Origin: Ginglymostoma cirratum
Taxonomy: Eukaryota
Assembly (NCBI GenBank): GCA_024137785.1
Contig: JAHRHZ010000041.1
Location: 5,407,052-5,471,051 of the forward strand
Direction of reading: 5' to 3'
Length of the DNA stretch: 64,000 bases
Positions 1,517 to 57,229 of this stretch are shown here, in pieces. Numbering within the stretch: the stretch's first letter is position 1; each line of letters opens with the position of its first letter. A program made the position numbers and the translations under genes. The notes beneath the pieces were generated by a model. It saw nothing but the letters and a program-made list of their open reading frames with translations. It was not told where the DNA came from and did not search any database.

Positions 1517-1714
1517 GTTGCTGGAGAAACTCAGCAGGTATGGCAGCATCTGTGGAGAGAAAGCAGAGTTAATGTTTTGAGTCCAGTGACCCTTCTTCAG
1601 AACACACTGACCCATTCTCCACAAATGCTGTCAGACCTGCTGAGTTTGTCCAGCAATCTGTTTGTTCGTTTGTTGCAGATTTCAAGCATTTATGCTTTTA
1701 AGTTAAGAAGCCTC

Positions 1715-2255
1715 TTCTGGAGTACTGTGTCCAGTTCTGGTTGCCCAGTTATAGGATGGATTTATTAAACTGGGGAGGGTTCAGAGGAGACTTACCAGGA
1801 TGTTGTCAGGAGTGGAGGGTTTGGGTTATAAGGAGAGCCTGGATAAGCTGGGACTTCTCTTAACCTCCTACATTGTACTGAAAGGTGACCTTTATAGAGG
1901 TTTATAAAATAATGAGAGGTATAAATAAAGTGAATGGCAGTTGTATTTTCCCTAGGCTGGGGGATTTCAAGACTAGGGAACATATTTTTAAGGTGAGAGA
2001 AGAAAGATTTTAAAGGCATGAGAGGCAATTTTCTTTAGAGTGGTCCGTGTGTGGAATGAACTTCCAGAGGAAGTGGTGGATGTGGGTGCAGTCATGGCGT
2101 TTAAAAAAACATTTAGATAATTACGTGAATAAGAAATACTTGGGGGGGATATGGGCCAAGTGCAGGCAGGTGGGACCTAGTTTCATTTGGGATTATGGTC
2201 CGCATGGACTGGTTGGGCCAAAGGGCCTGTTTCCAAGCTGTGTGACTCTGTGGTG
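1715..2255 (+). mobile_element. CR1/HER1-type LINE 3' fragment
   Basis: Degenerate LEYCVQFW coding sequence and the 3' tail ggactggttgggccaaagggcctgtttcc. Confidence 0.85.
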
Positions 2256-2280
2256 CATAATAGAGCCATAGTCATAGATT

Positions 2281-4487
2281 CAATGTTCAGAAGTATAATG
2301 GGATCTTACTCTGAAGGTGAACTTGGGTCTGGTTGGACTATCCTGTATCTCCGCACTTAATAGCTAGTTGCATTCTATCTATGTAACAAACTGTTTCTGA
2401 TTACCAAGATTGATCCAGTCTCCTACTGACTACTTTATGTGCAGATCCCTTCTCCGGAAGGTGCATGTAGCTGATATTTATGTCAGAAGGAGAATTGGTG
2501 CTGGCAAAGCTACCCAAAACTTCTTAGTGGTACCAGTGATAGTAGCTTTCTCTCACTTGCCTTCTACACTGCCTTTCCCTCTTGCCTACCAGGCTCGTTC
2601 TTCCTTTGTTAATGCACCTTTCACTGGGGCCCTCTGTCTCCCTCACTTGTTCACTATTGCCCGTGTTGTTTTGTCTTTCACATCTCCTCCATTAATGCTT
2701 TGATTTAGATTTTTGTTGAAAGGAGGAAAGAGTGGTGCAGAGGTTTAGCTACCTGAAGACATGGTCATCAATGGCAGCGTGATTAGAATGGAGATGCATG
2801 AGAAATTAGGGTTGGAAAGGTGGATTTTTTTTGTTTTGAGATAATTGGATTGGGAGTTATGTGAAGCAGGGGTAAAGAGGGTTAAAAAGTTTAAAATCGA
2901 ACCATTTCCTGATCAGGAATAGCTTCGGTCCATTCCAGTCCTTGGCTAAGTCCAGCAGTCACATGGCTGCCAACTCGCTGATTGGAACACAGCAGGTCTG
3001 ACAGTATCAGAAGAGGTGGAACGTCAATGTTTTGGGTCAGGACCCTTCAGAACACACTGCATTGACTCTGACTCCAGCACCTGCAGTTCTTGGTATCTTC
3101 AACTGCCTGATTGGGTATATTCCTGGGATTTCATCGTGGACCACCCATTCACTTGTTTTGCCCATCCCCTGGGTGGACTATATTACCAAGATCAACTGCA
3201 AGGTGAACTTTCTTTTGTAACCAACCATACATCACAGAAAGAGAAGTAGGCCATTCAACCCATCGAATCATCTCCAATATTTGCAGGATTGATAAATGCA
3301 GATGTTCAAAGAGAATACATAAATTGTTTATTTGGTGCCCATGCTGTGATTTCTCTTCTGGGGTTTGTGTTTTTTTCTGCTTTCTTGGAGGCTAATAATC
3401 TGCAGGAGATTAGTTCTCAGCATTCAGACACTCCAGGCCATTCCTGGAGGATTCGCAGCCCATTGGATCTGAATAGTCCTGAGCTGGTTGGTGAACTTGC
3501 TGGTACATGGGCTGTCTGCAATGTTGCCTGGTTGTGTAAAGGCTGCTTTCCTCTGGGTTAAGCTCAACCTGTCAACTCTAGCATATTCCCAGGTGGTGTT
3601 GCCATGCAAGTACCATGTATGGGCCACTTAACCTACTTGGCACAGACTGAGCCACTGCGCCCCCGTCAGCATCACCCGCTTATAGTTTTGGAGCTTCTGG
3701 AGTTTTTGTTGTGGTTGGTTTCTGCAACTGAGTTGGTTTGAATTTCTGGCAAGTGGTTGCTCTGCCTCCCAGGATTTTGGGAACGAGAAGCTGGCACATA
3801 AGTAAAAGTGATCATGAGGATTGTCGAGAAGAAACAAAGTGGTTCACTAATGTCCCTCCATTTTCAGGAAAGAGAAGTTGTGAGCCTTGCACAGTTTGCT
3901 GTGGGTGAAAGTCATGTGTAATCAATGTGACTAACGGTCATCTGAAATGGCCAAACAATTCTGTCTCCTTTTTATACTGCGGCCATCTGTGTTTCTCCTG
4001 CTTTCAGTCTTTGCATTTAACCTTGAACCCAGGTGTCTTGCTTGAACCCCTAAATCACTGGGAACATCTCATTCCCCTCAACTCTGTCTCATTTCTTCAT
4101 CAGTTTACAGTTCTACCACATTGGGACTCTAAATTCCTCTTTAAAAGCAGCCAGGTTTTTAAATAGTATTTATTTATTTGTGTGTATTTCCTCAGATTAG
4201 GCAATTTATTCCAGAGCATCACTGGTAAAGTTGGATTTTGCTGCCTGTCACTAATAGCTCAGAGGACAGTAAAAAGCAACCACATTGTTGTGGGTTTGGA
4301 GTTGGGTGTAGTCCAGATTGGGTAAGAATGACAGATGTCCTTCCTGAAGGTAAAAACAAACAAGGCACATGTTTACATGGTTATCATGAGGCTTTTTTTT
4401 TATTCCAGTTTGTTTTTGATATATTGTATTCAGATTTCATCATCTGCCATCGGAGCTGAGACCCTAGAATGTTAAATGCAAATAGAA
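2281..4487 (+). repeat. Local duplication, copy 2 (about 1 kb extra at about 2620-3620)
   Basis: Shares the anchors listed for copy 1 in the same order. Confidence 0.85.
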
Positions 4488-4489
4488 AT

Positions 4490-5460
4490 ATCTGGAAAGA
4501 ACTGGATCACATAGCACCCCACCAATCTCAAAATCCAGCACAACATTCTCCGACATTTCCGCCACCTACAATCCCACCCCGCTCCCAGAAAGATATTTCC
4601 TTCCCTGCCCCTGTCTGCTTTCCACAGGGACCATTCACTTTGCGACTCCCTCGTCAGCTCTTCACTGCCCAGCAACCTCTCCACCACACCTGGTACCTTT
4701 CCCTATAACCTCAAGAGGTACAACATCTGTCCCCACACCTTCTCTCTCACCTCTGTCCAAGGCCCCAAACCGTCCTTCCAGGTCCAGCACAGATTCACCT
4801 GCACTTCATCCAAACTTGTATCCATTGCTCCCAATGTGGTCTCCCCTATATCAGGGAGACCAAATGCAGACTCAGGGACTGGTTCACAGGGCATCTGCGC
4901 TCTCTGCACATCAGTCAGTCCGACCTTCTGGTTACCATCCATTTTAACTCCCCTGATGACATGTCTATCCTTAGCATCCTCCACTGTCATGATATGGAAG
5001 TGCTGGTGTTGGACTGGACTTGTCCTCCACTGTCATAGTGGGGCCAAGCATAAACTGGAGGAACAACACCTGATATTTTGCTTTGGGAGCTTACAGCCGG
5101 AGAGCCTGAATCTTGACTTCAGCTTCAAAACCCCTCCACTCCCAGCCTTATCCCATGTCCTGCCTCCCTGACCTGTCCTAAACTGTCCATCTTCCTACTC
5201 ACCCATTCGTTCCCCCCTTCCCACTGACAAATCAATATAACCCGCTACCTTCATCTACCTAACACCATCCCACCTACCTTTCCCCAGCCCCACTCCTCCC
5301 TCTTTATTTCTAGGCTCCCCTCCCCCTCCCCAGTCCTGACAAAGTTTCAGCCTAAAATGTTGACTTTCCTGCTCCTGTGATGCTGTCTGACCTGCTGTGT
5401 TTCTCCAGTTCCATGTTTACTGACTCTGCGTTCCAGCATCTGTCGTCCTTACTCTCTCCT
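4490..5460 (+). mobile_element. Penelope-like element 3' part (degenerate GIY-YIG endonuclease plus terminal repeat)
   Basis: Translates to FQVQHRFTCTSS and CSQCGLPYIRETKCRLRDWFTGHLRS (YIGET-type GIY-YIG) and KLEEQHLIF. Ends in the cctgctcc...gatgctg...cctgctgtgtt terminus. Confidence 0.85.
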
Positions 5461-9968: not shown

Positions 9969-11129
9969 CTGAGCCAGCAAACCCAGGTTCAAGTCCCATC
10001 TGCTTTCACACACAAAAAATAATAACATGCCTGAACATGCTGGTTTAAAAAATCTCGACACTACTCAATTTGATAACTGCTGTTACAATCCAAGTGAGAG
10101 AATCTAAAGATCGCCACAAAAACTTTAGGTGCAATTCACTTTGTGATCAAATTTCACGAATCCATTTGCATTTTGTTTGGCAACAATTCAAAGGTGGAAG
10201 GGTCAGTAAATAGAATAGGAGCAACATGAGCAAAACCTATTTTTACACAGTGAATCACGTTGATCAAGAATGCGCTGCCTGAAATGGCAATAGACCCTGA
10301 TCCCTTTTTGAAAGGGAATTAGATATACACCTGAACTTGTAAATTTCTCTAATTTATGGAAATGGGCTGGGAAGTGGGATCAATTCAGTACGTCTCACAG
10401 GAGACTCACAGATTGACCAAGACTCCGCACCATTGCTAGGCTCAAGTCCCTGCTTCGGTGGCTCAGTGTTCCAAACACCTTCCTTGAGATAAAGCTTTTA
10501 GACTTTAAGATCTGGATGTTTTCCTACCTCTTGAATTGATAGGTGACTTTGTACAGTTTTCACTGTACTCAAGTATTCCTATACTTGAATACACGTGACA
10601 AAAAGATCTAATTCTAAAATGTATAAAAATTGGGCTGAATTACCTCCAGTGCTGTGTCATGCTGAGCTTCTGGTATAACAATAGGGAATGAGCAATGAAA
10701 TCAAACTCTTCATTCATTCTATCAATTACGCAAGTGTTCTTTTTGAATTTGTTTCTTGCCAGTTGTTGGTGTTTATCCTGCCGGGAGGTTGGAAAACAGT
10801 GCAGCTTATTGTAGAGGGTTCAAATCGATACAAAGTGTATTGATCAAAGTCCTGGAGTTCATTGTGTATTGATAAAGACAGAGAAGCAACCTCAAAATCA
10901 CTGTTGCAATCTGGACTTGAATCATTAGCTATAATCAGACATAGTAATTTCTGAAGGAGGGTCCCGACCTGAAACGTCAGCTTTCCTGCTCCTCTGATGC
11001 TGCCTGGCCTGCTGTGTTCATCCAGCTCCACACTGTGTTGACTCATTAGCTGTGCTTTTCACTCCAGTGACTGTGCTAGACCTGCAGAGTCTCCAGCACC
11101 TTGTATGTTTGTTTCAGATTTCAGATCTA

Positions 11130-13610: not shown

Positions 13611-14569
13611 TGATGGTGCAGGAGTCAGGCAGTGAGGCTGGGCTTTCTATTTTTAATGCCTGCTCATTTTTCTTTTGGTGACTGAGTGTTCTGTCCTATG
13701 ACTTTATGGAATATGGGGAGTATCTTTATTTTGAAGTCATCCTGTCTGTGTTTGGGGAATGAGGGAGACTGTCACTGTGTGTTTCAGTCTCCTGGATGTG
13801 AGAGACAGACAGTGGAACAGCACTCCACTGAAGTTCAGAGGAAGGGTCACTCAACCTGAAGCATTAACTCTGATCTCTCTCCACAGATGCTGCCAGGCCT
13901 GCTGAGCTTTTCCAGTAATTTTTTTATATTTTTGACTTTGACATTAGGTGATTTGTTTAACGTGTAAACACCCACGTTCAATCCTATCCCACGTCACACC
14001 CTTGACTGACTATACACCAGGAGCAGTAGATACCCATGGAGAGGGTAATTTCATTTCATACTCCAGAACGTGGATCTAAAGTTGTGGAGACACCATAGCA
14101 GCTGGAGGGGGGATTTTAAATCCAGTTTATAAATCTGGGACACAGGGCTAGTCTCGTTTCCTAATGACAGGGTTTCTAATTTTAAAAAAAACCCATATAG
14201 TTCACTGTCTTGAGGAAGGAAATCTGTTCACCTTCACTGGTCTGGTCTAACACGTGCCCCCAGATCCACAACAATGTGTTTGCCTTTTCAATGCCCTCTG
14301 AAACGGCCTAGCAAGCCACTACATTCTGTCAAACCAGTACGGAAAATTTTGAGTGCATGTGGACTGCAGCAGTTCAAGAAGGCAGCTCACCACGACCTTC
14401 TCAAGGACGGTTAGGAGATGGATAACCACTTGCCCAGCCAATGACACGCACATCCCCTGAATGAATGGGGGCAAAACACATAAACAGCCTAGATGTGGGT
14501 GCCCATATTCTGTGCCCTGGCTTCTCTCATATCCCTTTTTTAACAGAAGGTTCGAGAAGTGCAGGGGAA

Positions 14570-15045
14570 ACCGTGGAAGGGTTGCACAGTGGCTCACTGG
14601 TTAGCTGCTGCCTCACAGCACCAATGACCCAGGTTCGATTCCACCCTCTGGTGACTGTCTGTGTGGAGTTTGTACGTTCTCCCCATGCCTGCATGGATTT
14701 CCTCTTTGTTCTGAGAAAGGGTCACGGACTCAAAACATTAACTCTGTTTTTCCCTTCGCAGATGCTGCCAGACCTGCTGAGCTTTTCCAGCAATTTCTGT
14801 TTTGTTTCCTCTTGGTGGGCTCTGGCTTCCTCCCATAGTTCAAAGATGTACAGGTTAGGGTGGATTGACCATGTTACACTGCCCATGGTGTCCAGGGATG
14901 TACAGGTTAGGTGGATTAGCCATGGGAAATGCAGGATTACAGGGATAGGGTGGGGGATGGGTCTGAGTTGGATGTCCTTCAGAAGGTCGGTCTAGAATTG
15001 ATGGGCTGGATAGCCTGCTTCCACACGGTAGGGATTCTGAGTTGA
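14570..15045 (+). mobile_element. HE1-type V-SINE with a nested Penelope terminus (about 14710-14810)
   Basis: tRNA-like head gtggctcactggttagc...ggttcgattcc, V-domain tgtgtggagtttgtacgttctcccc, and a CR1-like tail. Confidence 0.85.
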
Positions 15046-15414
15046 ACATTCTGACCCTTGTGTGCACTAACTACATCATGACCACCAGTTCAATCGGTCC
15101 TTAAACGTCGTGATCATTTTGTAACAAGAAGTTCAGTCATTAAGGGACAGAATTCCTGGCTGGCTCCCTCCCTCCCCTCTCTATTCCTTATTTATACACC
15201 ACCTTTGCCTTGTGGAATCCTAAAGAAGCCTGCTCATCCTGACTCGATTCCATCTGGAGTGCCAATGCTGCTTGATGCCCAGTGAGCTCTGACATGAGAA
15301 TTGTGAGCAGTTAGATTGACAGAAGTGAGAACTGTCACACTAGCATAGAGCTAACAAGGTGTGGAGCTGGATGAACACAGCAGGCCAAGCAGCATCATAG
15401 GAGCAGGAAAGCTT

Positions 15415-15442
15415 GACGTTTCGGGCCCAGACCCTTCATCAG
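15415..15442 (-). ncRNA. Minimal hammerhead-ribozyme-like core in a Penelope terminus
   Basis: Reverse complement reads CUGAUGA-A-GGGUCUGGGCCC-GAAA-CGUC: conserved core boxes, stem II hairpin and palindromic ACGU stem III. Confidence 0.65.
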
Positions 15443-15716
15443 AAATGGGGGAGGGGAAGAGGGTTCTGAAATAAATAGGGAGAGAGGGGGAGGCGGATAG
15501 AAGATGGATAGAGAAGAGGATAGGTGGAGACGAGAGAGACAAGTCAAAGAGGCGGGGATGGAGCCAGTAAAGGTCAGTGTAGGTGGTTTTACTGGCTCCA
15601 TCCCCACCTCTTTGACTTGTCTGTCTCCTCTCCACCTACCTTGTCCTCGATCCATCTTCTATCCGCCTCCCCCTCTCTCCCTATTTATTTCAGAACCCTC
15701 TTCCCCTCCCCCATTT

Positions 15717-15744
15717 CTGATGAAGGGTCTAGGCCCGAAACATC
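15717..15744 (+). ncRNA. Minimal hammerhead-like core with a CpG-decayed stem III
   Basis: CUGAUGA-A-GGGUCUAGGCCC-GAAA-CAUC. Confidence 0.5.
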
Positions 15745-15994
15745 AAGCTTTCCTGCTCCTATGATGCTGTTTGACCTGCTGTGTTCATCCAGCTCTACAC
15801 CTTGTTATCTCGGATTCTCCAGCATCTGCAGTACCTATTATCACTGATATCAACACTAGCATGGAGCTATAAGTTTACAGCTGAATAAAGTTCCCCTCTG
15901 AAGGTGAGAGAGAGACAAAACCACAGCAATCTTTTGGATTGCAATGAGCAAATGCTGCACAACAGACTCCCACTTAAAACATGGTCATTTTCAG

Positions 15995-17360
15995 ATCAAA
16001 CTAAAAATGTGCTGGAAATTATCTGCAGGTCTGGCAGCATCTATGGAGAGAAGAGTTGATGTTTTGGGTCAATGACCTTTGATTAGAACTGGGCAAGTTT
16101 GAAATGCAGTCAGGTTGAAGCAAGTGAAAAAGGATCAGAGTAGGGTAATGAACGAGGGAAAGCCTGTGCTAGGTGAAAGACGACTGAGATTGACTGAGAG
16201 AAGAATTTGATTGTGCAGGGCCAAAGGGAGTGGTAACAGGACAAGGAATGCTGTCTGGAGGAGGCATGATGATAAACCAAACAGCTATCTGAAAGAAAAG
16301 AGTGAAACCAAAACACTCAGAGAAATGGAACAAAATGGATGCAGAGATTTACAATTTGATATTCTTGAATTCTGTTGTCTGGAACGCTATAGTGTGATTA
16401 ATGAAAAGATAAGGTGCCATTCTTCAAGCTTATCTCGAGTTCACTGGAACAATGCAGCTGTCCTAGGGCAGGGAGCTCTGCATGGGTCACAGAATTAAAT
16501 TAATAGATGACGCGAAACCTGGTCACACCTGTGGAGTGGAAGGAGATGTTTTACAAATACAACAAACAGCCAGCCGCCTCATTTTAGAGGCGATTGTGCT
16601 GTGAAGCTGGGAATACGGTATTCGAAATTGAAGAGGTGCAGCATAACTTTGTTTTCAACTGGGAGTTTTTGTGTCTTTGGTGGCAGGAGGGAGAATTTAA
16701 AAAGGCAGTTCTTACACCTCCTGTGCCAGATCGTGCCATAGGAAGGGTCAGAGTTACTGAGGGCACTTGGGGAGTGGACAAGGGTTCTGTGGAAGAAAGT
16801 GCCGCTTTTGGAATACTGACAGGGCAGTGGGAGTCAGCAAGTTGGATCCATGCTGGAGTTTGGCGAGGACATTGTGAGTGTTGGGGCTGGTTGTGGTGAA
16901 AGGTGAGGGCATGGTGAACCCTTTCTTGGTCTGGGAGCAAAGGGAAGAGGCAAGAGTAAATGTGCACGAGATGGAGCAGACCTGATCAAGGGCTTTGTCA
17001 GCCATGGGAAGGGAGTGTCTTCCTGAGGAGAAAGGAAGGCATCTCGGAAGCATTGTCATGAGAGGTTATGTTGTCACATACGATGTGACTGTGCTGGAGA
17101 AATGGGGAGAATAGGACAAATCCTGTGGTTAACACATGTTAGGAAGTGTAATCATGGACTTAACACTGAAAATTAGGAAATAACTTATCCCAGAAGTGGA
17201 GACAGATGTTGAGTGGGAGGGAAGAGTTAGAGATAGACCATGTGAAATTGACAGAAGGACGCAAACTGGAAGCAAAGTTGATGAAAATTTCCAGTTCAGG
17301 GCAAGAATAGGAAATGGCACTGATTACAGTCATCGGTGTCCTTGAAAAGGGGGTACCAGG
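15995..17360 (-). mobile_element. Old degenerate Penelope-like element
   Basis: Terminus at about 16000-16090 plus eroded RT/GIY-YIG-like sequence (GISYFLIFSV, CCTSSISNTV), collinear with the 4490-5460 element. Confidence 0.65.
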
Positions 17361-17939
17361 ACTGGAACAAGAAAAATTTGAGACAAGTGAATAACTATAG
17401 ATGCTGGAGATTTGAGACCTAGCTGGTGCAAGACATGTTCTTTGGATTAAGCAGTTGTGAATGCCGTATCTTTTTATCTTTTTCTTTATTTTGAGTTGTA
17501 TATGGAAATGGGGAAAGGTGCACTTTAAACCAAGGAAGTGTGGAAGGAATTGCTGCACATCTTAGAAACAAGCCTCTGGAGCTTATTGTGAGTTGCGTTG
17601 ACACTGTTGTTTTATTCAAGCAGTGGGGGAAGATTTAAGACCAAGTGGCACTGTGTGCAGAACAGGCTTCAGCCAAAGGCAGCCCAATTAGCAGCTTTTT
17701 CAGTTAGGACCAGCTGTGGAGGCCAGCATGAGAACAGCACTCTGATTCCTGGGCAGATGGGACACGAGTGCGTGAAATAGACAATGATATCAAGACAGAA
17801 GTTCTCCAGACTTCAAGCGGCAAGGGCTCTTTCTTTATCTGCAAAAACTGAAAGATAACTATTCTCTCCCACCACAAGCTATTACCTCTAACCAGTGACT
17901 AAGAAACCGAACAATTAATGTGTCTTCAGTCAGGTATAA

Positions 17940-19505: not shown

Positions 19506-21084
19506 GTAAGACCACCCAGGAACCTTCCTGATAACCCTGACCTGGAATTGCTCAATGTTTTACATGCAGAGGCTTCCTGAAATTACGCTCACATTTTTCT
19601 CTTCCTTTCGCTCCTTTGTCCTCCACCCCAATTCTCACTGACCCCAGGCGCTAGTGTTACTGGTGACTGGCATGAGGGAAACATACGAAGTTACTTGATC
19701 TGGATGAATTTTTTTTATCTACATTTCAATCCTAATGTTCCGTTAGCTGTTCTCCAAGTGAAAATCGGTGATTTTTAGACTCATGGAAGCTGAGAGCTGG
19801 AGGGAGTACAATGGTTAAAAAAAACGAAAGGACTGCAAATGCTGGAAACCTGAAACAAAAAACAGAAATACTGGAAAATCTCAGCAGGTCTGGCAGCACC
19901 TGTGGAGGGAAATCAGAGTTAACGTTTTGGGTTGAGTGACCCTTCTTCAGAACCATGATACAATAGTTGTTGGGGGCAGGGTTATATTATCTCTCCTCTT
20001 GGTTGTCCTGTACAAGTGGGATTAGCATGTTTCTCCATTTCAAAAGGCACTATGACTCGAGCAGATTGTGCGGAATTAAAATAACATGGAGGCTTGAGTA
20101 AAGTTCTTGAGTCAAAGCAAAATGTTGCAGATGCTGGAAATCTGAAATAAAAAGAGCGCAAGAGCAACTCAGCTGGACTGAAGGCATCTGAGGCTTTGTG
20201 AAGAACTCTAAACGTTAAATCTGTTTCTCGCTCCACAGCTGCTGCCAGACCTGCTGAGTTTCTCTAGCTATTTTTGGATGAAGGACCAGTGACCTGTTTT
20301 TTTTAACAACAATCTAACAGATTCCACGGTCACTTTATTTCTGATGCCAGTCCACAAATGACTAGATTTATTCGATCAGATTATTGTGGGATTTTGACTC
20401 CTGATCCTCTGGGATCTTATGGCCAAAGCCCTTATACTCTGTATTGTCAGTATGTAGGAATGATCCAGCCCATGGAAGACATTATTAGAGTAGATGGTAG
20501 TGTCAGAGCAAAAGAATCACAGTTGAACTTGTTTATGCTCTGCGGGGAAAGTTCAAGCTACGGAGACCACCAGACCCCCTCATTCACACAGGAATTCATG
20601 GGGGGCTGGCTCTGTTCACCTATTGAATGTTGTGAATTACTTGATCCATTTCAGGCTGAACATCCTTAGAGGCTTAGCTGGTCCATCCCAGTGTTTATGT
20701 TCCACTACAGCTTTGTCGCCTGCTCTACATTCCATTCTGTCTCTCATGTTTACTACACTTCATTTCAAAGGCGTCTCCACTATTATGTTGATCAATCTGT
20801 GGTCATGAGTTCTGCCTTCTTATCATGCTGTGGTCAAAGGAGTTTCTGCTGGATTTCTCATGGCATTTAAGAAGATAAAGTCGCCATAGTCCTACGGGAT
20901 CATGAGGCTGCTCTCTCATTACAGAGAGAGATGACTGATGTCACCACGGGTCAGGTGAGGAGAGAGATAGTGAAAGAGAGTCTTTCATAGTAATCTAAGC
21001 TGGTGTGGAAACTGAGCCCAAGCTGTTGGTTTCCCTCTATCTTGCAAACCAGCCCTCCAGCCAACTGAGAATATCATCATCGAA

Positions 21085-21492
21085 ACCCTATAGTGTGGAA
21101 ACAGGCCCTTCGGCCCAACAAGTCCACAACGACCCTCAGAACGTCCCACCCAGACCCATTCCCCCTCTAACTCACCTAATCTACTCATCCCTGAACGCTA
21201 CGGGCAATTTAGCATGGCCAATCCACCTAACCTGCACATCTTTGGATTGGGAGGAAACTGGAGCACCCAGAGGAAACCTACGCAGACGCGGGGAGAATGT
21301 GCAAACTCCACACAGACAGAGGCCCGAGGGTGGAATCGAGATAACAAGGTGTGGAGCTGGATGAGCACAGCAGGCCAAGCAGCATCATAGGAGCAGGAAA
21401 GCTTGACGTTTCGGGCCTAGACCCTTCATCAGAAATGGCTAACCTGGGTCCCTGGTGCTATGAGGCAGCAGTGCTAACAGCTGAGCCACCGT
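21085..21492 (-). mobile_element. HE1-type V-SINE with a nested Penelope terminus (21340-21438)
   Basis: caatttagcatggccaatccacctaacctgcacatctttgg... V-SINE core, interrupted inside the B-box region. Confidence 0.9.
21405..21432 (-). ncRNA. Minimal hammerhead-like core
   Basis: Reverse complement reads CUGAUGA-A-GGGUCUAGGCCC-GAAA-CGUC. Confidence 0.65.
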
Positions 21493-22478: not shown

Positions 22479-24074
22479 GTTTAAAAATTGAACTCTTCAT
22501 GTTGTGACCCTGTGGGCTAAATGGGATGATTTGATGATCTGAAGCCTATTTTGCTTTATCTTTTTTGAGGGGCTGTTAACTTTTTTTTATGGGATCTTAC
22601 ATTGACTTTGATAAAGGCGTTGAGGCTAAACCGATGTCAAGATTCTGCTAGTTGGGAGTGAGATCAGAACAGGAAGGGACGGGGAATGAGGAACCCGTTA
22701 CCGCTGGGCTGTGGAGGGAGGAAAGGACACAGGCAAATAACTCGGTGTTTCAGTTTGTATCAAAAAACAGGCCAATTTTTATTCTTTCATGGGGATGTGG
22801 ATCCCACAGACAAGGCCAGCATTTGTTGCCCATCCCTAACTGCCCTTGAACTGAAAAGCTTGCTTGGTCATTTCAGAGTCAACCATATTGCTGTTGATCT
22901 GGAGTCAGCTGCTGGTCAGATTTGGGTAAAAATGATAGATTTCTTTCCTTAAAGGACAAGGAGTATCAATGAATGCAATCAAAATTAATTGACATGTCAT
23001 CACCATTATACTAACTTTTAACTCCAAATTAATTAATTGAATTGAATTCACACCAGTTTAAGTGATGAGATTTGAACTCCTGTCTCTGGTGTGTGAGATG
23101 GGGGTCTGTGAGTTTCTAGGATAGTGAGATTACCACTACACCACCCTGTCCTGCTCAATGGACCCATGCTGATCATATGCCATCCTTATTTCTCCTCATC
23201 AACATGACCACTATTTTCTTCCAGTGTTTAACCAGCTTCTCGTAGATAGAGCTAATTTACCTCAATTATTTCACATGAGCTCCATATGCTTTACACTATC
23301 TCTATTTAAAGATATTTTTGTTTGGCTATTCTAAGAATCATCTCAGGTGTGGACAAATTTAGCGTAACTTGTCTGCTTTAAATTTCTTCCTTCTAGAAAT
23401 AAGCCTTGAACAAACGAACGTTTGTTTTAATGACCTTTTCTGCATTGCTACAATTAATGATTTGTGAAGATGTAATTATAGCCAATTAGACATTCGCCAT
23501 AAAAATAAATTTGCAGTTTGGATGGCATCAGAGAGATGGGAACCCAGATGTGTTTTTGTTGGTTGGAAGGGAGAAGCATTTCAGAAAAGCAAATGGGTGG
23601 AGGGTAAAATCATTCCTTTAACAAACAGCAGGAGAGTGTGACTATTGTGCAATTAGACATCTGCTAATGAAATCCCAGGAATGTGTGACGTTGATGCTCA
23701 GCATTCCACTTGGAAGATTTCAGTTCAGCCCTAATTCTGACACCCTAATAATTGTTTTTCGTTTTATAAAATGAGACTGTCACAAGAAGAGTTAAGAGAT
23801 TTACTGGAGACATAAATGAGTCATTTTCACATCACATGAGCATGCTAAATTCTATAATCGCTCCTAAATAAAAATTGGAAGAACTGCAGATGCTGGAAAT
23901 CAGAAACAAAAGCAGAAGTTGCTGGAAAAGCTCAGCTGGTCTGGCTGTATATGTAAAGAAAAATCAAAGTTAACATCACTAGACTGTAAACATTAACTCT
24001 GATTTCCCTTCACAGATGTTGCCACACCTGCTGAGATTTTCCAGCAACTTCTGTCTTTGCCTATAATCTCTCCA

Positions 24075-26309: not shown

Positions 26310-26640
26310 GTAATGCAAAAAATTTTCCAATTTGCTTCTGTCCTCATGCCTGTCAGCTCAGATGTTTTAAGCCCAATCCATGTCTATCCTTTTGGCTGGA
26401 TGTTAACAAAATCCCACAACCACTTCCTTTTTTTTAAATTTGGAGAAGCTTGGGAAGGAGGATGTATCCTTGATGTGACCCAACATCACCTTTTAAACAG
26501 ATTAAAACTATAATTTTAACAAAAAAAACCGAAAGAGCCACAGATGCTGGAAATCAGAAACAAAAACAGAAATTGCTGGAAAAGCTCAGCAGGTCTGGCA
26601 GCATCTGTGGAGAGAAACCAGAGGTCATTAAAGAAGTGTT

Positions 26641-26671
26641 CTGAGGAAGGGTCACTAGGCCCGAAACATTA
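26641..26671 (+). ncRNA. Minimal hammerhead-like core (second family), sense strand in TMPRSS4 intron 5
   Basis: CUGAGGA-A-GGGUC-ACUA-GGCCC-GAAA-CAUUA. Confidence 0.5.
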
Positions 26672-27348
26672 ACTCTGATTTCACTCCACAGATGCTGCCA
26701 GACCTGCTGAGATTTTCCAGCAGTTTCTGTTCTTGTTGTCGTATCGTTTAGCCTTTTCTATTTGTGGGGCCTAACTATGCACAAATAATTAAACTCTGAA
26801 ATTTGAAATATTTTTGAAATAATAATAACATGCTGTATTATTTCAATATTTTATGTGAACATAAATGGAGGTAAATTGTTGCATGATTTTCTCTTAGTCT
26901 TTCACTATCTGCATTCCTTTTGCAAACCCTTTGTATCCGCCTCACAAAAACAGATGGAAATGCAAGTTGTATCATCAGGTTGTGCTACTGACTGTCTATC
27001 CCTTCATCTGCATCATTCCTATAGATTGTAAATAGCTGAGGCCCCAGCACTGATCCCTGTGCCTCTCCGTGAGTTATAGTTCACTAATCTGAGAGTGACC
27101 CACATATCCCAACCCTGTTAGTTAACCAATCCTCTATCCATAATAACGTATCACCCCTAACACCGTGGCCTTTTTTATTGGTTCATGGGATGTGGGCATC
27201 ACCGGCTGGGCCAGTAATTATTGCCTGTCACTAATTGCCCCTTGAACTGAGCACCTTGCTAGGGCCATTTCAGAGGGCAGTTAAGAATCAACCATATTGC
27301 AGTGGGTCTGGAGTCACATATAGGCCAGTTCTAGTAAACCAAGTGGTT

Positions 27349-27376
27349 CTGATGAAGGGTTTAGGCCCGAAACGTC
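27349..27376 (+). ncRNA. Minimal hammerhead-like core, sense strand in TMPRSS4 intron 5
   Basis: CUGAUGA-A-GGGUUUAGGCCC-GAAA-CGUC. Confidence 0.65.
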
Positions 27377-28299
27377 AAGTTTTCCTGCTCCTATGATGCT
27401 GCTTGACCTGCTGTGTTCATCCAGCCCCATGCTTGTTATCTCGGATTATTGATGCCACCATTTCACAGTGGCCATTAAGGTAGCTTTTGATATCATATTT
27501 ATTTGTGAATTCAAATTTTACCATCTGCCATGGTGGGAACTGAATCCATGTCCCCAGTGTATTAGCCTGAGGTTTTGGATTACTAGTCCAGTGACATAAC
27601 CACTATAGCACCTGCTTCCCCAACTTGTAGAGTTTTTAATGTGGCACCTTATCACATGACTTTTGGAAATCCAAATATGCTACTAGCACTTGTTCCTGTT
27701 TTAACCATCCTGCTTGTTACATTGTCAAATAAAGTTGTCAATAATAACTTCCCTTTCACAAACGAAAAATGTGAAAGAACTGCAGATGCTGGAAATAAGA
27801 AATAAAAGCAGAAATTGCTGCAAAAACTGAGCAGGTCTGACAGCATCTGCAAAGATAAATCAGAATTAGCATTTCGAGTCTGGTGACCCTTTGGGACTGT
27901 TGGCATCAGAAATGATGACTCTTTCTCAACACTGAGATTTTCCAGCAATTTCTGTTTTTGTTTCAGATTTCCACAGATGCTGCCAGTCCTGCTGAGATTT
28001 TCCCTGCAACGTCTGCTTTCGTTCCCTTTTTCAAAACCACGTTGATTCAGCATTATTGTAAAAAGACATTCAAAATGTCCTGCTACTCCATATTTGATCG
28101 TGGATTCTAGCATTGAGATATGTCGGGCTGACTGGCCTATGCATTTCCCTCCTTGAACGATGGTGTTGCATTGGTGGTTTTCCAATTTACTAGGACATTT
28201 TCAGAACCTAGTGTCCAGATCTTGAATCTGGGGAATGTTGTTTTGCCTTAGCATCTGGAAGCGCCTCAAAGAATGAGTTGCTTTGAAGATCAGTGATTT

Positions 28300-32575: not shown

Positions 32576-32580
32576 CTGTG

Positions 32581-32801
32581 GAGATAGTAAGAACTGCCGA
32601 TGCTGGAGTCAGAGTTAACACAGTGTGGAGCTGGAGGAACACAGCAGGCCAGGCAGTATCAGAGGAGCAGGAAAGCTGACGTTTCGGGTTGGGACCCTTT
32701 AGAAATTTTCTGAAGAAGGGTCCTGACCCAAAACGTTAGCTTTCCTGCTCCTCTGATGCTGCCTAGCCTATTGTGTTCCTCCAGCTCCACACTGTGTTAT
32801 C
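32581..32801. mobile_element. Fold-back Penelope-terminus pair with a flanking direct repeat
   Basis: taacacagtgtggagctggaggaac ... gttcctccagctccacactgtgtta. Flanks tcttatgttcctgtg (32566-32580) and tcttatgtccctgtg (32802-32816). Confidence 0.85.
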
Positions 32802-33373
32802 TCTTATGTCCCTGTGTTCTGGTGGAGGCATATGGGCCAAATGATGGCAAATGAGACTAGATCAATATAGTGTATGTGATCAGCTCATATGAATTGGACC
32901 AAAGAGTCTGTTTAGGTGCTGTATGACTCCATGTCAAACCTGGCTCTGTTGGATTTCCTCATTGCCTCTGGTTTGATGTAAATAACTTTAAATTTCTGCC
33001 GTCTGATGGTTGACTTCCAGATGCTAGAAACAGCTCTTATTTGATCAAAGCCCTTTATGATTTTAAATGTAAATCCAGGATAACTTCAAACACAGAGCCA
33101 GTGGTAGTGTTGGTGCCAGGGTCAGATCATGCGAGTGTGTCCAAAGAATGCACCAGATGTGAAATACATTATAATCTAAAATCAGGAATAAAGATTTGAG
33201 CTTTCCTGATGAACTGTCAGTATAATTGTAACATTTAATTATATCTCCCTGGTTGCCAGATAACATCTTGATGCTAAGAGACAAAATTAAATTCAAATCT
33301 AAAATTAAGTTAAAGCTTAATTGAAAAATATTCCAACAATATTAACCATTGTTTCCTTTCGTTTTTTGTTCAG

Positions 33374-33414: not shown

Positions 33415-33822
33415 GTAAGTTCATGGATTCCTTTAAAGATTTTCATTAGTTTGTCAAAAGTGTTTTCAATTTGAAAAATTTTTGTGTTCTTCAGATAGTG
33501 TGTACTCAGGGAAGTCACTGACTGGTTTGTCGGTGGGAAGTTGCAGGGGGAGATAGGAATTCTTAGCTGAGGGAAGAATAAGCCACCACTGCAGACCCAA
33601 TAAAGAAAACCCTCTACCATCCTGGGAGTTGCATGGTGCAATGCTAATAGTTGTTGTTGAAAAAGAGCGATTAACTTCGTGTCAATGTGTCTGCACCATA
33701 CCCAGGCAATGGCTGACATCTTGGTTTATTAAAAACTGCGGATGCTGTGAATCAGAAACAAAAACAGAAATTGTTGGAAAAGCTCAGCAGATCTGGCAGC
33801 AGCTGTGGAGAGAAATCTGAGG

Positions 33823-33853
33823 TAACGTTTCGAGTCCAGCGACCCTTCCTCAG
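33823..33853 (-). ncRNA. Minimal hammerhead-like core (second family)
   Basis: Reverse complement reads CUGAGGA-A-GGGUC-GCUG-GACUC-GAAA-CGUUA. Confidence 0.6.
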
Positions 33854-34439
33854 AACTAGTTCTTGACCTGAAACGTTAAGTCCGATTTCTCGCTATTTAC
33901 AGAGCTGTTTGGTTCCTGGACTTCTATAGATCAGACATTTGGTCATTTTATGTTGTCTGATTTTAATATCATCCACATTGTCTTGCCTCCCATCCATTTT
34001 CAGAAATGTTTGTTTGATAAAGTTTTTTTTTGTCCTCATCAAGCTGTAGTAATAGTCTCTGTGTGACTGACTTCATTTCTTTCCTGTGTGTCATTTTTGT
34101 ATATTCATTCATTCCTGAAATGCTGGCGTCATTGACGGGACCAGTTTCTATTGTCTATCTGTAAATACCCTGGATAAAATCATGAGGGGCACAGATAAGG
34201 TGAATAGCCAAGGACTTTTCCACAGGATGGCCAGAAAGACGTGGTTAGATGTGGGTACAGTTACAATATTTAAAACACATTTGAACAGGTACATGAATAC
34301 GAAAGGTTAAGAGGGATATAGGTCAAATGCAGGCAAGTGGGTCTGCTTTTGTTTGGGGAAATTTGATCAGCATGGACAAGTTGGACTGAAGTTGTTTCCG
34401 TGCCGGATGATTGTACAAAGTTGTGAACTGCTGCAGCCT

Positions 34440-35373: not shown

Positions 35374-35479
35374 TAAGTGTGTAAGTAACTATCACCCTGC
35401 AACCATCTCCCTCCCCCACCCCCCTCCTTCCCACTTCACCCCCAACCAACATCTTCTATCACCCATCAATTATTCTGTC

Positions 35480-36140: not shown

Positions 36141-36187
36141 TGCTTTTTGTTTTGGAATGATTTTCTGAATGGAGTTGTTTATTTCAG

Positions 36188-47203: not shown

Positions 47204-47904
47204 TAATTGACTATTTTTCAATGCTGTTGTGTATGTGACATGTCTGAGTTATATAAAAGGTAGGAAATGTTCATCTTGCGCAGTAAACCCTTGTCTGTAT
47301 ACAGATGGGGATAGGGGATAGGGGTGAGGGGTAGAGAATCAGCTTAGTCAGACCACCCCTATTCCCTCCTCCGCCGCCACTTCCATTTCTTCTCCCCTCC
47401 CCCACCAGAAGGAAAATTCCAGTGCCTCCCTTCAGCTTCATACTGGGGAAAGGTGAGCTGCATTTTTGTGTTGGAAACTTGGTAACGCAATACATTAATG
47501 TTCCAATAAAAACAAAGTGTAGGAAACTCTCAGTGGGTCTGGCAGCATCTGTGAACAGAGCAAATGTTTCAGGTCTATCTGTTGTTGCTCAGTAACAGTC
47601 TCACCTCCCTGAGATCAGATACTTTCCGAAACAACTTGTTCAGAGATGTTATGACATACCTCTGGAGCAGTGGGACTTCCATCCAGCTTAGAGGTAGAAA
47701 CACTAACACTCTGCCACAAGAGTCCTAATGCTACAGTCAGACTCCAACTAATGTGCCTATCCATTAGCCTCTGGGTTATTGACAGAATGCGAGTGGCATG
47801 ACCACTACTCCACCATCACTTGGTGTCCTCTTGAGGAGGTAGGTTGTGGTGCTTAAGATGTCACAGGTAGAAAACGTTAGACAAAGGCCTAGTTTGCCTT
47901 CCTA

Positions 47905-51897: not shown

Positions 51898-52520
51898 CTA
51901 GAGATAACGAGGTGTGGGGCTGGATGAACACAGCAGGCCAAGCAGCATCATAGGAGCAGGAAAGCTTAACTTTTCAGTCCTAGACCCTTCATCAGAAATG
52001 GGGGAGGGGAAGAGGGTTCTGAAATAAATAGGGAGAGAGGGGGAGGCGGATAGAGGATGGATAGAGGAGAGGATAGGTGGAGAGGAAGCAGACAAGTCGA
52101 AGAGGCGGGGATGGAGCCAGTAAAGGTGAGTGGAGGTGGGGTGGTAGGGAGGAGATAGGTCAGTCCAGGGAGGATGGACAGGTCAAGGGGGCTGGATGAG
52201 GTTAGTAGATAGGAGATGGGGGTGGGGCTTGAGGTGGGAGGAGGAGATAGGCGAGAGGAAAAACAGGTTAGGGAGGTGGGGATGAGCTGGGCTGGTTTTG
52301 GGATGCGGTTGGGGGAGGGGAGATTTTGAAGCTTGTGAAATCCACATTGATACCATTGGGCTGCAGGGTTCCCAGGCTGAATATGATTTGCTGTTCCTGC
52401 AGCCTTCACTGTGGCATTGCAGGAGGCCCAGGATGGACATGTCGTCTGAGGAATGGGAGGGGGAGTTGAAATGGTTTGCGACTGGGAGGTGCAGTTGGGC
52501 CACCTGGAGGCAGCTCTCCA
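51898..52520 (-). mobile_element. Young Penelope-like element 3' end
   Basis: HLPVANHFNSPSHSSDDMSILGLLQCH (GIY-YIG C-terminal region); terminus nearly identical to the arms at 15352-15807. Confidence 0.88.
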
Positions 52521-52689
52521 AAATCTCTTGGCTAATCTCCACCTGATTGGTAGAGATTGACTGAAACCTATCAGTGACTGAATCAATTGAAGCAATTAAC
52601 TCATGGAAAAATGTTTGATAAATTACATGATGTGAGCATATGATGTGTCACAGTAGCAGCTCATATTGCTATGCTAGAAAGACCAGCCC

Positions 52690-53125
52690 AAAGGAGTTTT
52701 TAGATATTTCCTAATCAACTTGTTCAAAGATGTTATTACACATCTCTGGAGCAGGTAGGACTTGAACCAAGGTCACCTGGTCCAGAGGTAGGGACGCTAC
52801 AACTACACTACAAGAGTCCCAACAAAGATATTTTTATACTTACTAACCTGTTCTGGGATATTATTATGCTCATCTGAAGTAGGTGGGACTTGAACCTGCG
52901 TTGCCTGGCTAAAATGTAGGGACACTAACCCTGCACCACAAGATCCTCCAAATGGGTGTTTTATCATATATCCCTAAGGAGTTTTTAAAAAAATTAACCT
53001 ACTTTTCTAATCAACCTGTTATTACCCACCTTTGAAGTAGATGGGACTTGAACCTGGGCCTCCCGATCCAGGGGTAGGGACACCACATGGCACCACAAGG
53101 CCCTCCAAAGGAGTTTTTATTTATA
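52690..53125 (-). repeat. Tandem trimer of a tRNA-derived short element
   Basis: Three units containing ggacttgaacc...ggtagggac...caccacaag. Monomers also occur at about 9430/9970, 19335, 29030, 47630 and 63065. Confidence 0.8.
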
Positions 53126-56100
53126 GGTCCCACAGGGGTTCTAGTCCCTTCTATTTAACAGTATCTACCTGATGTCTGTATGTAGATAATGAAGAGTCTG
53201 GGACCTCCCTGATGGTGAGAAAATGCTAAAATCTGCATTCAACATGCAAGAAAAACTGGCTCCCACAATGGATCCAAGTGCCTAAATATGCATAAAGTGT
53301 ATGAATACTTGACTGTGTCTCCAAGCTCCAAAAAAGGGACATTTGGAGATGAAAGGGGAGTGGAGCTCATTTACTGCTTTTCTATGAAACAATTATTGCT
53401 GGAACTATTTTGTGGATAGAATCTAATCCCAATACTGTTACTATTAAAGAACTGAAAGTCACTTCATGATTGCCAATGTTCTTGTTTGTACACAACGGAA
53501 TTATCCAAGCGGAGATAGATGATACATGCCACCCACAGTTCCCGAAACTTTCTGCTGAAGTGCTTCATGTGAAAAACAGCAAATTCTTATTGGCAACACT
53601 CCCCTTTAGTAGACAGATTATCTTCCTTCACATGTTTGTTCACAATCTTGTTCCTATTGCTTAGAAAGAAGATTTAACTAACTCTATTACAGGAAGTACT
53701 TGATTGCACCACTTCCTGATCAAACTGATATCACTGCATTCTAAGGTCTTGACCAGAAAGTTCCCAATCAGTTGCACATCATTTGCAACACCACCCAGCT
53801 CGGACAAGAAAGATGACAACCAGAATCTTAAGTGATCTTTCACGTTCCCTACTGATCAAGCTTCAGATAATTTGCCCCTTGATTAAGTGCCTTTGAAATT
53901 CATAGCCAAAAAAAAGCAAAGAGCTCATATAAAGGTAACATCCTGAGTAGCATCATCTGTTATTTAATACCATTGGGCATGCAGAGTAATCGGGTGCTAT
54001 GCAAACGCTCCCAGAGTTTTATATTGTTTAGAATATATTTATGAACTTCTGAATGATTGCAATGATAAAGCAATAGTTCTAATCTCATACAGTGCACGTT
54101 GGGTCTTGGAAACCGACCCATTCAATCACATCATGTTCTTCACACCTCAGTGTTGATACTCTGTACAGCACCAGTGCCTTGTGCCCAACTGTGGGAAGTT
54201 CAGATTGGAAAGAAAGATAGCCTTGCTCCTAAAGAAGTGCAAGGATTTTCTGCATCTAGGTTCTGACTTTGGTACAAATTTCTGGAGAAACGGTGTATAT
54301 TTACACCACTTTTTGTACTTTTACAAATCACATGACAGGGTGAGATTTTGCATGACTTGTCTCGTCAATTTGGACCCAGGGATAATCAGGAAAGAGGATA
54401 ATGTAGAGGAATAATTTTCCATGTATCTCTGAATGTCTCATCTCCTTTACACTGTATTTAGAACACAGAAAGAGGCCAATTGATCTCTGCTGGTGATTCT
54501 GTCCACGTCAGCCTTTTCCCTGTTTTCTTCATCCAATCCCATTATAGCTACTCTTCTCTACAATTATTTTCTACTCCTGTCTACTCATGCACTTGTCCAG
54601 CTTCCCCTCAAATGTATTTTTACTTTTCACTTTAACTACTACCTGTGGTAGTGAGTTCCACATTCTCACCATTCCCTAGGTAACACTTCAGTAAAATTCT
54701 ACTCGGATCTAAAGTCGCAACGAGAGGACATTATCCCTAAGATTCCTCTGGCTGCTGTCTTTATTGCAATGAATGATTAAAGGTTTCACTGAAAGTGCTT
54801 TTTGAAGATGACCCAACATTTGAACCCTTCCTTTTCCATACGGCTGTGAGCCAGGAGGCCTCAGATGGGAGCTTCCGAGCTGAGAAAGGATCAATGATTG
54901 TGACTGCTCATAGAGTTACAGAGTCATAGATGTCTACAGCACAGAAAATGGCCCTTCAGCCCGTCAAGTCTGTGCCAGTCAAAACCATGGAATAGTCTAA
55001 TCCCATTCATTCCACTGCTGCAACAGCAGGATGGACAGACCTTGCATGGTAGGGAAGGAGAGGCTGCGAGGAATGTATGCATAGGTGCTGGGGTGGGGAG
55101 GCTATATTTGTAATGGTTTTATAAGAATCTGCAGCGGATTCTAGAGTCCAAAGTCAAGGTGTGAGCCATAACATTTGGTTTTTATTAATGCCCATTGCTT
55201 CAATGCTGATACCAGCTCAGTTAGGTGTACCACCAATGTGGGTGTGCAAGAGGACATATCCTAAGTGCTTTCAGCTCATAGCCCCATACATTATTTTCTC
55301 TTGGTACAGCCTTCAGACTATTGACATTCCTTCACCATCTCTGGATCAAATTCCTGGAATTCCCTCCCAAACAACACTGTGGGTGTCCCTACAACCCCAA
55401 AGACTTCAGTAGTTCAAGAAGGCAGTTCACCATCACCTTCTCCAGGGCCATTAGGAACGGACAATAAATGCTGGCCCAGCCCTCATATGAAATATAAGTC
55501 ACCAACTCCTCAGAATGGATAAATACCATTAGCTGAGGTGGTGCGCAACCTCATCCATCCACATTTTGTTTCATTTGATCTTGAAGAATGGTGCCTTTGG
55601 ACCATCATCAAAATGTTCTCAAAATGCTTTGTGAAAGTTTGTGGATGGCAAGTTTAATGCAAACCAATCAGAACGTGACTGTTCCTTCCACTCGGGCACC
55701 AGTATCTCAAGATGAAGTTAGATGAGGACAATCTCCTTGCCCAATAACCCAGAGCAGTCTCATCACAGAGGCTAATGCTCTTCTTATTGGTTCCAAGGTT
55801 TTTGTATCCACTAACCTCTGAGAAATCCATTGATGACATTTGACACTAGTCTTCAACTTGCCTCACCCCTTCAACGTCATTTGTCCAATATTTCCTTCCA
55901 AGCTGTGAAAATACTCCATCTACATCCTCATTTTTCCAACAATGGGGAGGTTCAAAAGATCTGAGGAAGATTTGTTTTCTCTCCCGGAACCTGACTTGAT
56001 GTCATTTTGATAAAAACAAAATCCTGCAGATGCTGGAAACCTGAAACAAACGCAGATAATGCTGGAGAGACTCAGCAGGTCTGGCAGCATCTACAGAGAG

Positions 56101-57229
56101 AGAGAGAGAAACAGAGTTAACGTTTCGAGTCCTGTACAATATCTCTTCACAATTCCGAAGAAGAGTCATATCAGACTCGAAATGTTAACTCTGTTTCTCT
56201 CTCCACACATCCTGCCAAACCTGCTGAGTTTCTCCAGCATTATCCGTGTTTTCTGCTATTATTTAGCTTTGAATGAAATTCCATTAAATATTCTATCCCT
56301 GGTTTGATACCAGCACACACAGGAGAGCATTAATATTATTCAGTGTCAGCTCTATTGCTGTGTTAAATGGAAGTGGAAACAACAGACAATCATGCTTTCC
56401 CCAGTAATCCATTGCCCATTACTGGACTCTTTCTTGTTGGCACTCCTGTTTACTATGTTCGTATTACATCAATAGACTAGGACATCAAAAGTTGACAGCA
56501 AAGATCTCAAGTGACCAGGGGATGAGTGGTTGGATAGCAGAGCGAGGTGGAAGGTCCCTTGACATCCATTAATCCACTGCTCTATCCTGGTACCCAGCAC
56601 TGAAATGGATAATATTGCTACTTCTGCTAAGATCCACCATGCTCAAGGTTTGTGCTCAAAATAAACAAAGGGATTGTCAGACCAAACATTCCCACACATC
56701 TCCTATCAGTTTCAGTTTCCCAATATTATCAAGAAACCTTGCTCAGACAGTGTGAGGAACCCAGTGAGGATCTCTTTCTCCCGTCTTTGTGATAGGCTAT
56801 GTCTATATCCATCCACATTTGCTCAAGTCTGTTCACCCTAAGCAATTGTTTTGCTAAGACACCCATTAACTGGTTAACTGTTTCCCACAACCAAAGTATA
56901 AATGGGATAGGAAAATTATGGAAAGTAACCGAGAAACTCAGTAAAAAAACAGACACAAGAACCAAACAGGAGGAAAGAATATCAAAAACAATGAGGGATA
57001 TATATTGTCCAATATGTATTGGCAAAGTTTTTTTATATTTCTGATTTATCTACTTTGACAAGAGAATTAATGTTAACCAATACTTTTTTGGGAGGCTGAG
57101 ACCTGTAGTACCTATTACATAGGAAGAACTGGAATAAATCCAAGGTCTAGAGTGAACAGGCACATAAAGGCTAAAGCAATGTTCATCTTTAGCTCAAAGC
57201 AGTCATAGTATAAAGTGAGGTGATATTTC

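Follow-up and report, generated by a model that had tools for sequence, protein, structure and literature searches.

Hammerhead-bearing short copies in a shark genome as probable 3'-end pieces of Penelope-like retrotransposons

Described relatives of the shark hammerheads

Minimal hammerhead ribozymes (min-HHRs) of metazoan Penelope-like elements were described by Cervera and de la Pena (2014, PMC4209133). The copies found in the window, the whole 64-kb stretch of DNA analyzed here, show the same type I core with an extra base between positions 9 and 10.1, the same G10.1-C11.1 pair, and a palindromic 15.2-16.2 segment with no helix III. As described there, several consensus families occur per genome, opposite-strand pairs are seen, and most copies are single, which that paper ascribes to truncated elements. 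The stems are shorter in the window than in those min-HHRs, with only 4-5 bp in stem II and 3-4 bp in stem I. Shark terms are absent from two supplementary files of the 2014 paper, and literature searches found no report on these shark hammerheads. Expanded Penelope-like elements are noted in the whale shark in a preprint. Motif, host element and dispersed distribution have all been on record since 2014, and as a ribozyme discovery the present case is ordinary.

Neptune-clade elements (Craig et al. 2021, PMC8557442; Arkhipova et al. 2013, PMC3846280) are described with the same order of reverse transcriptase (RT), Cys linker and C-terminal GIY-YIG endonuclease. They also share heavy 5' truncation, head-to-head inverted termini with palindromic junctions, a 30-40 nt tail on one end, and target duplications of variable length. 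Unlike in these descriptions, most insertions in the window consist of the terminus alone, and their 5' ends are sharply fixed at 2-6 nt upstream of the core.

In Poseidon of the green anole (Frangieh et al. 2024, PMC11167929), two RT start sites define the tail, and both strands are extended. Uncut RNA is the template, and the RNA-seq data reported there have no read ends at the cut site, as here. Poseidon as described lacks the Cys linker, unlike the shark element, and its reading frame starts inside the hammerhead. Non-LTR retrozymes (PMC7229834; bioRxiv 10.64898/2026.07.22.740005) have in common with the window copies a type I hammerhead, kinship to the Penelope terminus, and a predominance of non-coding copies. 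They are described as head-to-tail tandem units of ~170-400 nt with circular RNA, whereas the units in the window are inverted, with none in tandem.

Hammerhead cores, families and decay

An HMM built from 13 seed copies returned 37 matches at E <= 1, and 34 related segments were left after the removal of three weak ones (E 0.63-0.91). The segments represent ~30 short end pieces, mostly decayed. Most have all or part of the hammerhead motif, and the C3 position is retained in 18 arms. All copy counts refer to the 64-kb window, which includes no full-length element; the core density is about one per 3.5 kb.

The family-independent pattern CTGANGAN{8,30}GAAACGTH detected four intact cores against none expected (0 in 100 dinucleotide shuffles). 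They coincide with the four copies that the initial annotation of this DNA had listed as near-intact, at 15415-15442 (-), 21405-21432 (-), 27349-27376 (+), and 33824-33853 (-). All eight copies listed as decayed were also found, with C3 at 1600 (-), 10951 (+), 15717 (+), 19950 (-), 26641 (+), 32710 (+), 51995 (-), and 56155 (+). The proposed minimum of 12 copies was thus borne out at 12 of 12 sites, and the true total is higher. Decay mostly through CpG loss, as had been suggested, holds because 11 of the 16 core mismatches in 12 family-A and -B copies are at CpG positions. At least two sequence families had been recognized. At least four variants were counted here, labeled A, B, C and E in this analysis, besides one old copy, D.

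The assignment to the minimal type I hammerheads known from Penelope-like elements stands: the four intact copies contain the core boxes CUGANGA and GAAA and U16.1-H17, and all have the palindromic ACGU at 15.2-16.2 in place of helix III. The extra base after A9 is an A in all 17 copies compared. The 10.1-11.1 pair is G-C in 12, G-U in 4, and unpaired in 1 of these 17. The cut is predicted after GUC in family A, as proposed earlier. In family B it is predicted after GUU, not after UUA, because the stem I register pairs GUU with AAC.

Stem II had been said to stay paired across families. Pairing is kept between subfamilies (89.7% of cells paired), and stem II was recovered by RNAalifold, but the support from covariation is modest. 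Stem covariation was matched by 3 of 500 shuffles and exceeded all slid controls, the shuffle test being inflated by related sequences. Two-sided changes are present in only three of eight pairs, and 182 of 500 shuffles do as well. The hammerhead fold of monomers lies 7-10 kcal/mol above the predicted minimum, and the double-hammerhead lies far above the predicted co-fold minimum. A hairpin between the conserved GAUGCUG box and the tail is 83% paired, with covariation not above shuffles (42/500).

Non-CpG changes affect 5 of 120 positions in the core (4.2%) and 35 of 618 in the downstream flank (5.7%; p = 0.66), and CpG changes in the core number 11 of 36. The earlier proposal had been tied to excess conservation or covariation of the core boxes. 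No excess core conservation is seen inside the dispersed copies, whereas the stems are kept between subfamilies. Core decay in the dispersed copies is likely neutral, with selection likely acting on parent elements only, because the core decays like the flank inside copies. The expectation that standard annotation would overlook the motif was correct, as no hammerhead family appeared among 38 Rfam matches at E <= 10. Inverted pairs that fold as hairpins account for the Rfam matches of the miRNA type.

In one RNA run, 54,674 of 12,895,792 records map to the window, and intact core letters are present in 89-97% of RNA reads at four places in the decayed copy with C3 at 51995. Upstream continuation into endonuclease sequence is seen in 2,883 RNA reads (loose ends at 52497). 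In RNA run X23 the best-supported read joints are on opposite strands, with an arm that ends at 51994-51999 (502 reads). Among the joints listed, none of the back-going kind looked for as a sign of circular monomer RNA crosses the motif; there are 339 further joints. Joints at 51963-51965 were considered as cut-site evidence and rejected, as a related subfamily has a one-base gap at this point. These joints may conceal unaligned letters.

Coding remnants and insertion anatomy

Immediately 5' of two copies, those at 5336 and 51995, are coding remnants of a GIY-YIG endonuclease. The protein query for these remnants, P0001, carries Pfam RVT_1 and GIY-YIG. Both remnants match it, in keeping with an element that has RT followed by a C-terminal GIY-YIG with two Cys between GIY and YIG. 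The broken remnant at 4506..5156 (+) includes the RT thumb, a decayed Cys linker and the GIY-YIG endonuclease (44% over 218 aa, E 4e-39, tblastn). Its 3' end is copy D (5330..5460, +), a decayed hammerhead with a 4-bp stem I, a body and a tail. The other remnant, at 52292..52509 (-), is the frameshifted C-terminal part of a GIY-YIG endonuclease (77% over 39 aa and 95% over 38 aa, E 8e-31, tblastn). It is adjoined at 51900..52291 (-) by a 3' UTR, a decayed family-A hammerhead (C3 at 51995) and a tail-less body. The RT core is found in the window only as a separate old fragment at 16896-17348. Pfam detected no Penelope domain in the 41 open frames searched, out of 101 of at least 90 aa in the window; such a search misses Penelope domains because the remnants are frameshifted. 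It did report an unrelated RT fragment at 31734.

The CX2-5CxxC linker between RT and endonuclease is common to Neptune and Nematis. It is intact in P0001 and in 56 of 63 matches having the YIG motif, and one of the three Cys is left in the window copy. It is likely that the parent elements belong to the Neptune clade, as assigned by this linker motif and not by a tree. A predicted zebra-shark protein of the same family, P0152, reads through the 3' UTR into an apparent translation of the hammerhead motif. The ATG in the GAUGCUG box was rejected as a frame start: no matching N-terminus was found among 151, then 269 proteins, and the families differ in the frame that runs through the tail. Termini tied to coding sequence are seen in families A and D only. 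The parents of families B, C and E are not seen, because their copies in the window, including all seven of family B, do not extend upstream.

Eleven insertions are head-to-head inverted pairs, and in 10 of them a ~35-nt tail is present on one arm only (p = 0.006, post-hoc binomial). The family-A pair at 15348-15846 consists of a left arm (15348..15571, -) with the intact core 15415-15442 and no tail, and a right arm (15588..15846, +) with one CpG core change and a tail. A 17-bp target duplication at 15337 and 15853 brackets it. The family-B pair at 33719..33893 (both strands) has a palindromic junction, with an intact core and a tail in the - arm (33719-33856) and a short + arm (33862-33893). 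Only the + arm is tailed at 102..280 and at 1505..1708 (family B, decayed core with C3 at 1600). Only the - arm is tailed at 20106..20275, 23870..24059 (13-bp target duplication), 26529..26736 (family B, C3 at 26641), 32577..32804 (family C, C3 at 32710, 15-bp target duplication), and 56006..56251 (family E, C3 at 56155). In the last, a G-C pair of stem II is replaced by A-U. At 2985..3101 the - arm is decayed and the + arm is tail-only, and the complex pair at 27768..28003 has a full tail on the - arm and a partial tail on the + arm.

Two short single family-A copies with intact cores, at 21337..21438 (-) and 27346..27447 (+), start 6 and 2 nt upstream of C3, respectively. Family-B singles are found at 13833..13928 (+) and 16003..16089 (-), both decayed, at 14708..14804 (+), within another repeat and with a near-exact 12-nt target duplication, and at 19820..19953 (-), tailed and with one CpG core change. 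At 10949..11120 (+), a family-C copy changed in the G8/A9 region is followed by an older family-B fragment. A short decayed copy at 47508..47577 (-) starts inside loop II, and a single decayed family-E copy is at 59521..59634 (-).

Target duplications of at least 12 nt flank 5 of 21 insertions, compared with 6 of 300 random sites, and a clear duplication is absent from the other 16. Three whole pairs are bracketed by duplications of 13-17 bp. The 5' start lies 2-6 nt upstream of the core in 14 of 18 core-keeping copies. The tail-less arm reaches further 5' in seven of nine clear pairs, which is not significant (p = 0.09). Partner arms start at scattered offsets, which led to rejection of the idea that one arm of each pair starts at the cut site.

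Origin of the copies

The best explanation, to which a probability of roughly 80% is assigned, is that the copies are 3'-end pieces of endonuclease-encoding Penelope-like retrotransposons, likely inserted as 5'-truncated cDNAs and likely inert now. Each piece would comprise the hammerhead motif, a body of ~70 nt and an optional tail, inserted by the parent's own enzymes as heavily 5'-truncated cDNA. By analogy with the anole element, the parent protein would nick the target and begin reverse transcription downstream of the hammerhead, at one of two sites that would yield the tail-less end and the tail end. Copying would run 5'-ward and mostly halt just upstream of the core, and a second arm would then produce the inverted pair. 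Cleavage is predicted only for hammerhead dimers, probably assisted by protein, in transcripts of tandem parents. Uncut RNA is likely the template, because the copies keep the whole core. It is likely that the copies arose as a side effect of copying by the parent, and not as a repeat of their own driven by the ribozyme.

The initial annotation had labeled the repeats SINE-like, non-autonomous and retrozyme-like. This label is not supported, as no copy is in a tandem array, two are contiguous with endonuclease coding sequence, and the paired arms, tails and target duplications are the ones left by truncated insertions of an autonomous Penelope-like element. No SINE head (tRNA, 5S or 7SL with internal promoter) was found: the window has no tRNA genes, and Rfam gives no match of this type on the copies. 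The start of the copies at the ribozyme also counters the SINE reading.

The fixed 5' boundary is not accounted for by random truncation. A possible but tentative interpretation is that short copies are complete cDNAs of the 5' tip of the parent transcript and that pairs are single two-site events. The parent transcript would begin 2-6 nt before the core, with room for only the 5' strand of stem I, and reverse transcription from two internal sites would run off the transcript end.

It is unlikely that family B, perhaps with C and E, is a non-autonomous element of ~100-135 nt with its own fixed 5' end, mobilized in trans by a Penelope-like protein, which would be a weaker version of what the initial annotation proposed. 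All seven family-B copies do share the GTT start with nothing in common upstream, none of the B, C or E copies in the window extends into coding sequence, and non-autonomous Penelope-like derivatives are described in Chlamys (PMC8557442). However, a separate family-B master is not needed, because short copies with this 5' boundary also come from family A, for which a coding parent exists. Family-B copies also have no tRNA-derived head, and they start at the ribozyme with no visible upstream promoter.

That some dispersed copies are active, host-relevant ribozymes cutting the transcripts around them is very improbable. Four cores are intact and the family is abundant in the RNA run, but the copies have no stem III, the nearest intact cores on the same strand are 5,990 nt apart, and core decay is neutral. 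Single minimal motifs showed no cleavage in the experiments of PMC4209133, and eight of nine Xenopus dimers did not cleave in those of bioRxiv 10.64898/2026.07.22.740005. RNA read ends do not pile up, a weak test of cleavage with short fragmented reads.

Non-LTR retrozymes, in which tandem hammerheads cut the transcript into monomers that circularize and reinsert, comprise Penelope-terminus-related forms reported in vertebrates, including one cartilaginous fish (bioRxiv 10.64898/2026.07.22.740005), but this reading is contradicted for the window: the motif is in none of its seven tandem arrays, the cores of pairs are on opposite strands because paired copies are inverted, the copies do not start at the cut site, and read ends show no pile-up.

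The copies extend the record of Penelope hammerheads to a shark-like genome at high density, where they are missed by Rfam. The more useful aspect is their bearing on the insertion of Penelope-like elements, about which little is known so far. Two countable genomic footprints, the fixed 5' boundary and the rule of one tail per pair, allow an in vivo test of two-site priming. If the short copies are cDNAs of the 5' tip, shark genomes would map naturally, and on a very large scale, where Penelope transcription starts and where priming occurs, and family B could by now be a minimal mobile unit of its own, ~100 nt long.

Hammerhead copies and their predicted fold

The four near-intact hammerhead copies proposed in the initial annotation were confirmed in the sequence, positions included, and the eight decayed copies were all found (8/8). 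A core pattern independent of family matched the window four times, at these near-intact copies, and did not match any of 100 shuffles. An HMM search seeded with 13 copies gave 37 matches in the window; three weak matches were excluded and 34 segments were retained. The first core base, C3, is retained in 18 arms. Two tail-only pieces (3053-3101 and 17388-17418) were found by the tail model. No hammerhead family was present among the 38 Rfam matches to the window at E<=10.

In 17 aligned copies, the motif begins with one strand of stem I (3-4 nt), followed by CUGANGA, one additional A, stem II of 4-5 bp, GAAACGU-H, and the second stem I strand. It matches the minimal hammerhead in the available part of the study of Cervera and de la Pena (PMC4209133). 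RNAalifold recovered stem II unaided. In stems I and II, 89.7% of 136 cells are paired, and the covariation score was attained by 3/500 shuffles. Because two-sided change is seen in only 3/8 pairs, a level attained by 182/500 shuffles, and the alignment rows are related, the support that the alignment lends to the putative stems is fair rather than strong. The predicted minimum differs from the hammerhead fold for both the monomer and the dimer, in agreement with the low activity reported for the minimal hammerhead class. Of the two cut sites predicted initially, GUC agrees with the stem I register of family A; in family B the register predicts a cut after GUU and not after UUA. In family B (e.g., 26668-26695), a pyrimidine run that ends in CAG immediately 5' of ATG resembles a 3' splice site; the AG is missing in families A and C.

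The probable coding parent element

A broken RT thumb, a Cys linker and a GIY-YIG domain are encoded upstream of copy 5336. Upstream of copy 51995 lies the end of a GIY-YIG domain, which matches the whale-shark protein P0001 at 77% over 39 aa and 95% over 38 aa. P0001 shows Pfam matches to RVT_1 and GIY-YIG. In a zebra-shark relative, P0152, the frame runs across the 3' UTR into an apparent translation of the same hammerhead motif. The proposed Penelope-derived, ribozyme-bearing nature of the copies holds for the window. The CX2-5CxxC linker is observed in P0001 and in 56/63 matches with the YIG motif. According to the available part of PMC8557442, this linker is typical of Neptune and Nematis, whereas Penelope/Poseidon lack it; of the two clades that have it, Neptune is the one reported from vertebrates in the sources available in part.

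In X23, an RNA run possibly from a related species and apparently unstranded, 2,883 reads extend upstream into the endonuclease sequence. At four decayed positions of copy 51995, 89-97% of ~10,000 X23 reads carry the intact letters.

The minus strand of 16896-17418 holds a tail-only piece and, ~40 nt further downstream, an old Penelope RT fragment (E 8.5e-07 with P0001). Another RT fragment (31734-32099, plus strand; Pfam RVT_1, E 1.6e-4) is not matched by Penelope proteins and is presumably a CR1/L2-type LINE.

Boundaries and paired insertions

The copies start 2-6 nt upstream of C3 in 14 of the 18 arms retaining it. The family-B copies share an identical GTT start in 7/7, with nothing common further upstream. 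The boundary is approximate for families C and E because there is no long copy as reference. X23 read depth climbs from 3,748 at 52013 to ~9,700 at 51976, part of which could be explained by related subfamilies. The boundary may be a transcript 5' end or a stop point of RT, or it may mark where a short non-autonomous master ends. No description of it was found in the available parts of the published sources; supplements of bioRxiv 10.64898/2026.07.22.740005 and one of PMC4209133 may list shark families.

Eleven head-to-head pairs were observed. The ~35-nt tail is on one arm only in ten; in the eleventh, one arm carries a full tail and the other a partial one (p=0.006, post-hoc test). Near-exact duplications of at least 12 nt flank 5/21 insertions versus 6/300 random sites; the one at 10949 is doubtful, as it is 18 nt away from the element. 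Three of the duplications (17, 13 and 15 bp) each enclose an entire pair, which makes it likely that a pair is a single insertion event. In X23, the joints with the most support connect opposite strands, and one of the joined arms ends at 51994-51999 (502 reads). Penelope-like elements in the available parts of PMC3846280 and PMC8557442 likewise have termini placed head to head, palindromic junctions and a tail at one end. The counterpart of the tail in Poseidon of the green anole is a set of two RT start sites, as described in the available part of PMC11167929.

In tail-bearing copies (e.g., 15752-15842 and 26529-26620), the tail contains CAGCAUC, the complement of a GAUGCUG box kept in all families, which would place the tail-less end inside a predicted long hairpin. 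This hairpin is reminiscent of the stem-loop at which RT starts in the anole element. Its covariation showed no excess over shuffles. The pair at 15348-15811 is a ~460-nt palindrome with 224-nt arms and 94% complementarity, likely to form long double-stranded RNA if transcribed. T>C places number 30 in X23 versus 6-7 in two contig runs, the runs being from different organisms; the excess could be A-to-I editing. About 35 nt are common to 1475-1520 and 4445-4495, just outside two separate Penelope insertions. Copies 14708 and 21337 are nested in another abundant short repeat (D17/D18; 14605-14860 and 21160-21480), which provides an order of relative age.

Classification and decay of the copies

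The copies had also been described as SINE-like and retrozyme-like. In the sources available in part, the defining features of retrozymes are tandem units and circular RNA. In the window, none of the copies falls within a tandem array, no tRNA head was found, and the copy starts do not coincide with the cut site; this label therefore fails for the window. A 70-bp tandem repeat at 35420-36145, with ~5 near-identical units and older flanking units, does not contain the hammerhead motif.

The dispersed copies showed no excess conservation of the core. In a small sample of 12 family-A and -B copies, the non-CpG core differs from the family majority at 5/120 sites versus 35/618 in the downstream body (p=0.66). 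Core and body decay alike, indicating that the core is unprotected after insertion. Core CpG positions differ at 11/36. The RNA reads, whose short fragments make this a weak test, showed no position where many molecules start or stop, and the anole study likewise found no pile-up of read ends. The core is common to the subfamilies. Selection on the parents, followed by neutral decay of the copies, is the simplest reading. The window holds a genuine and dense example of an already known motif, carried by a known class of element.
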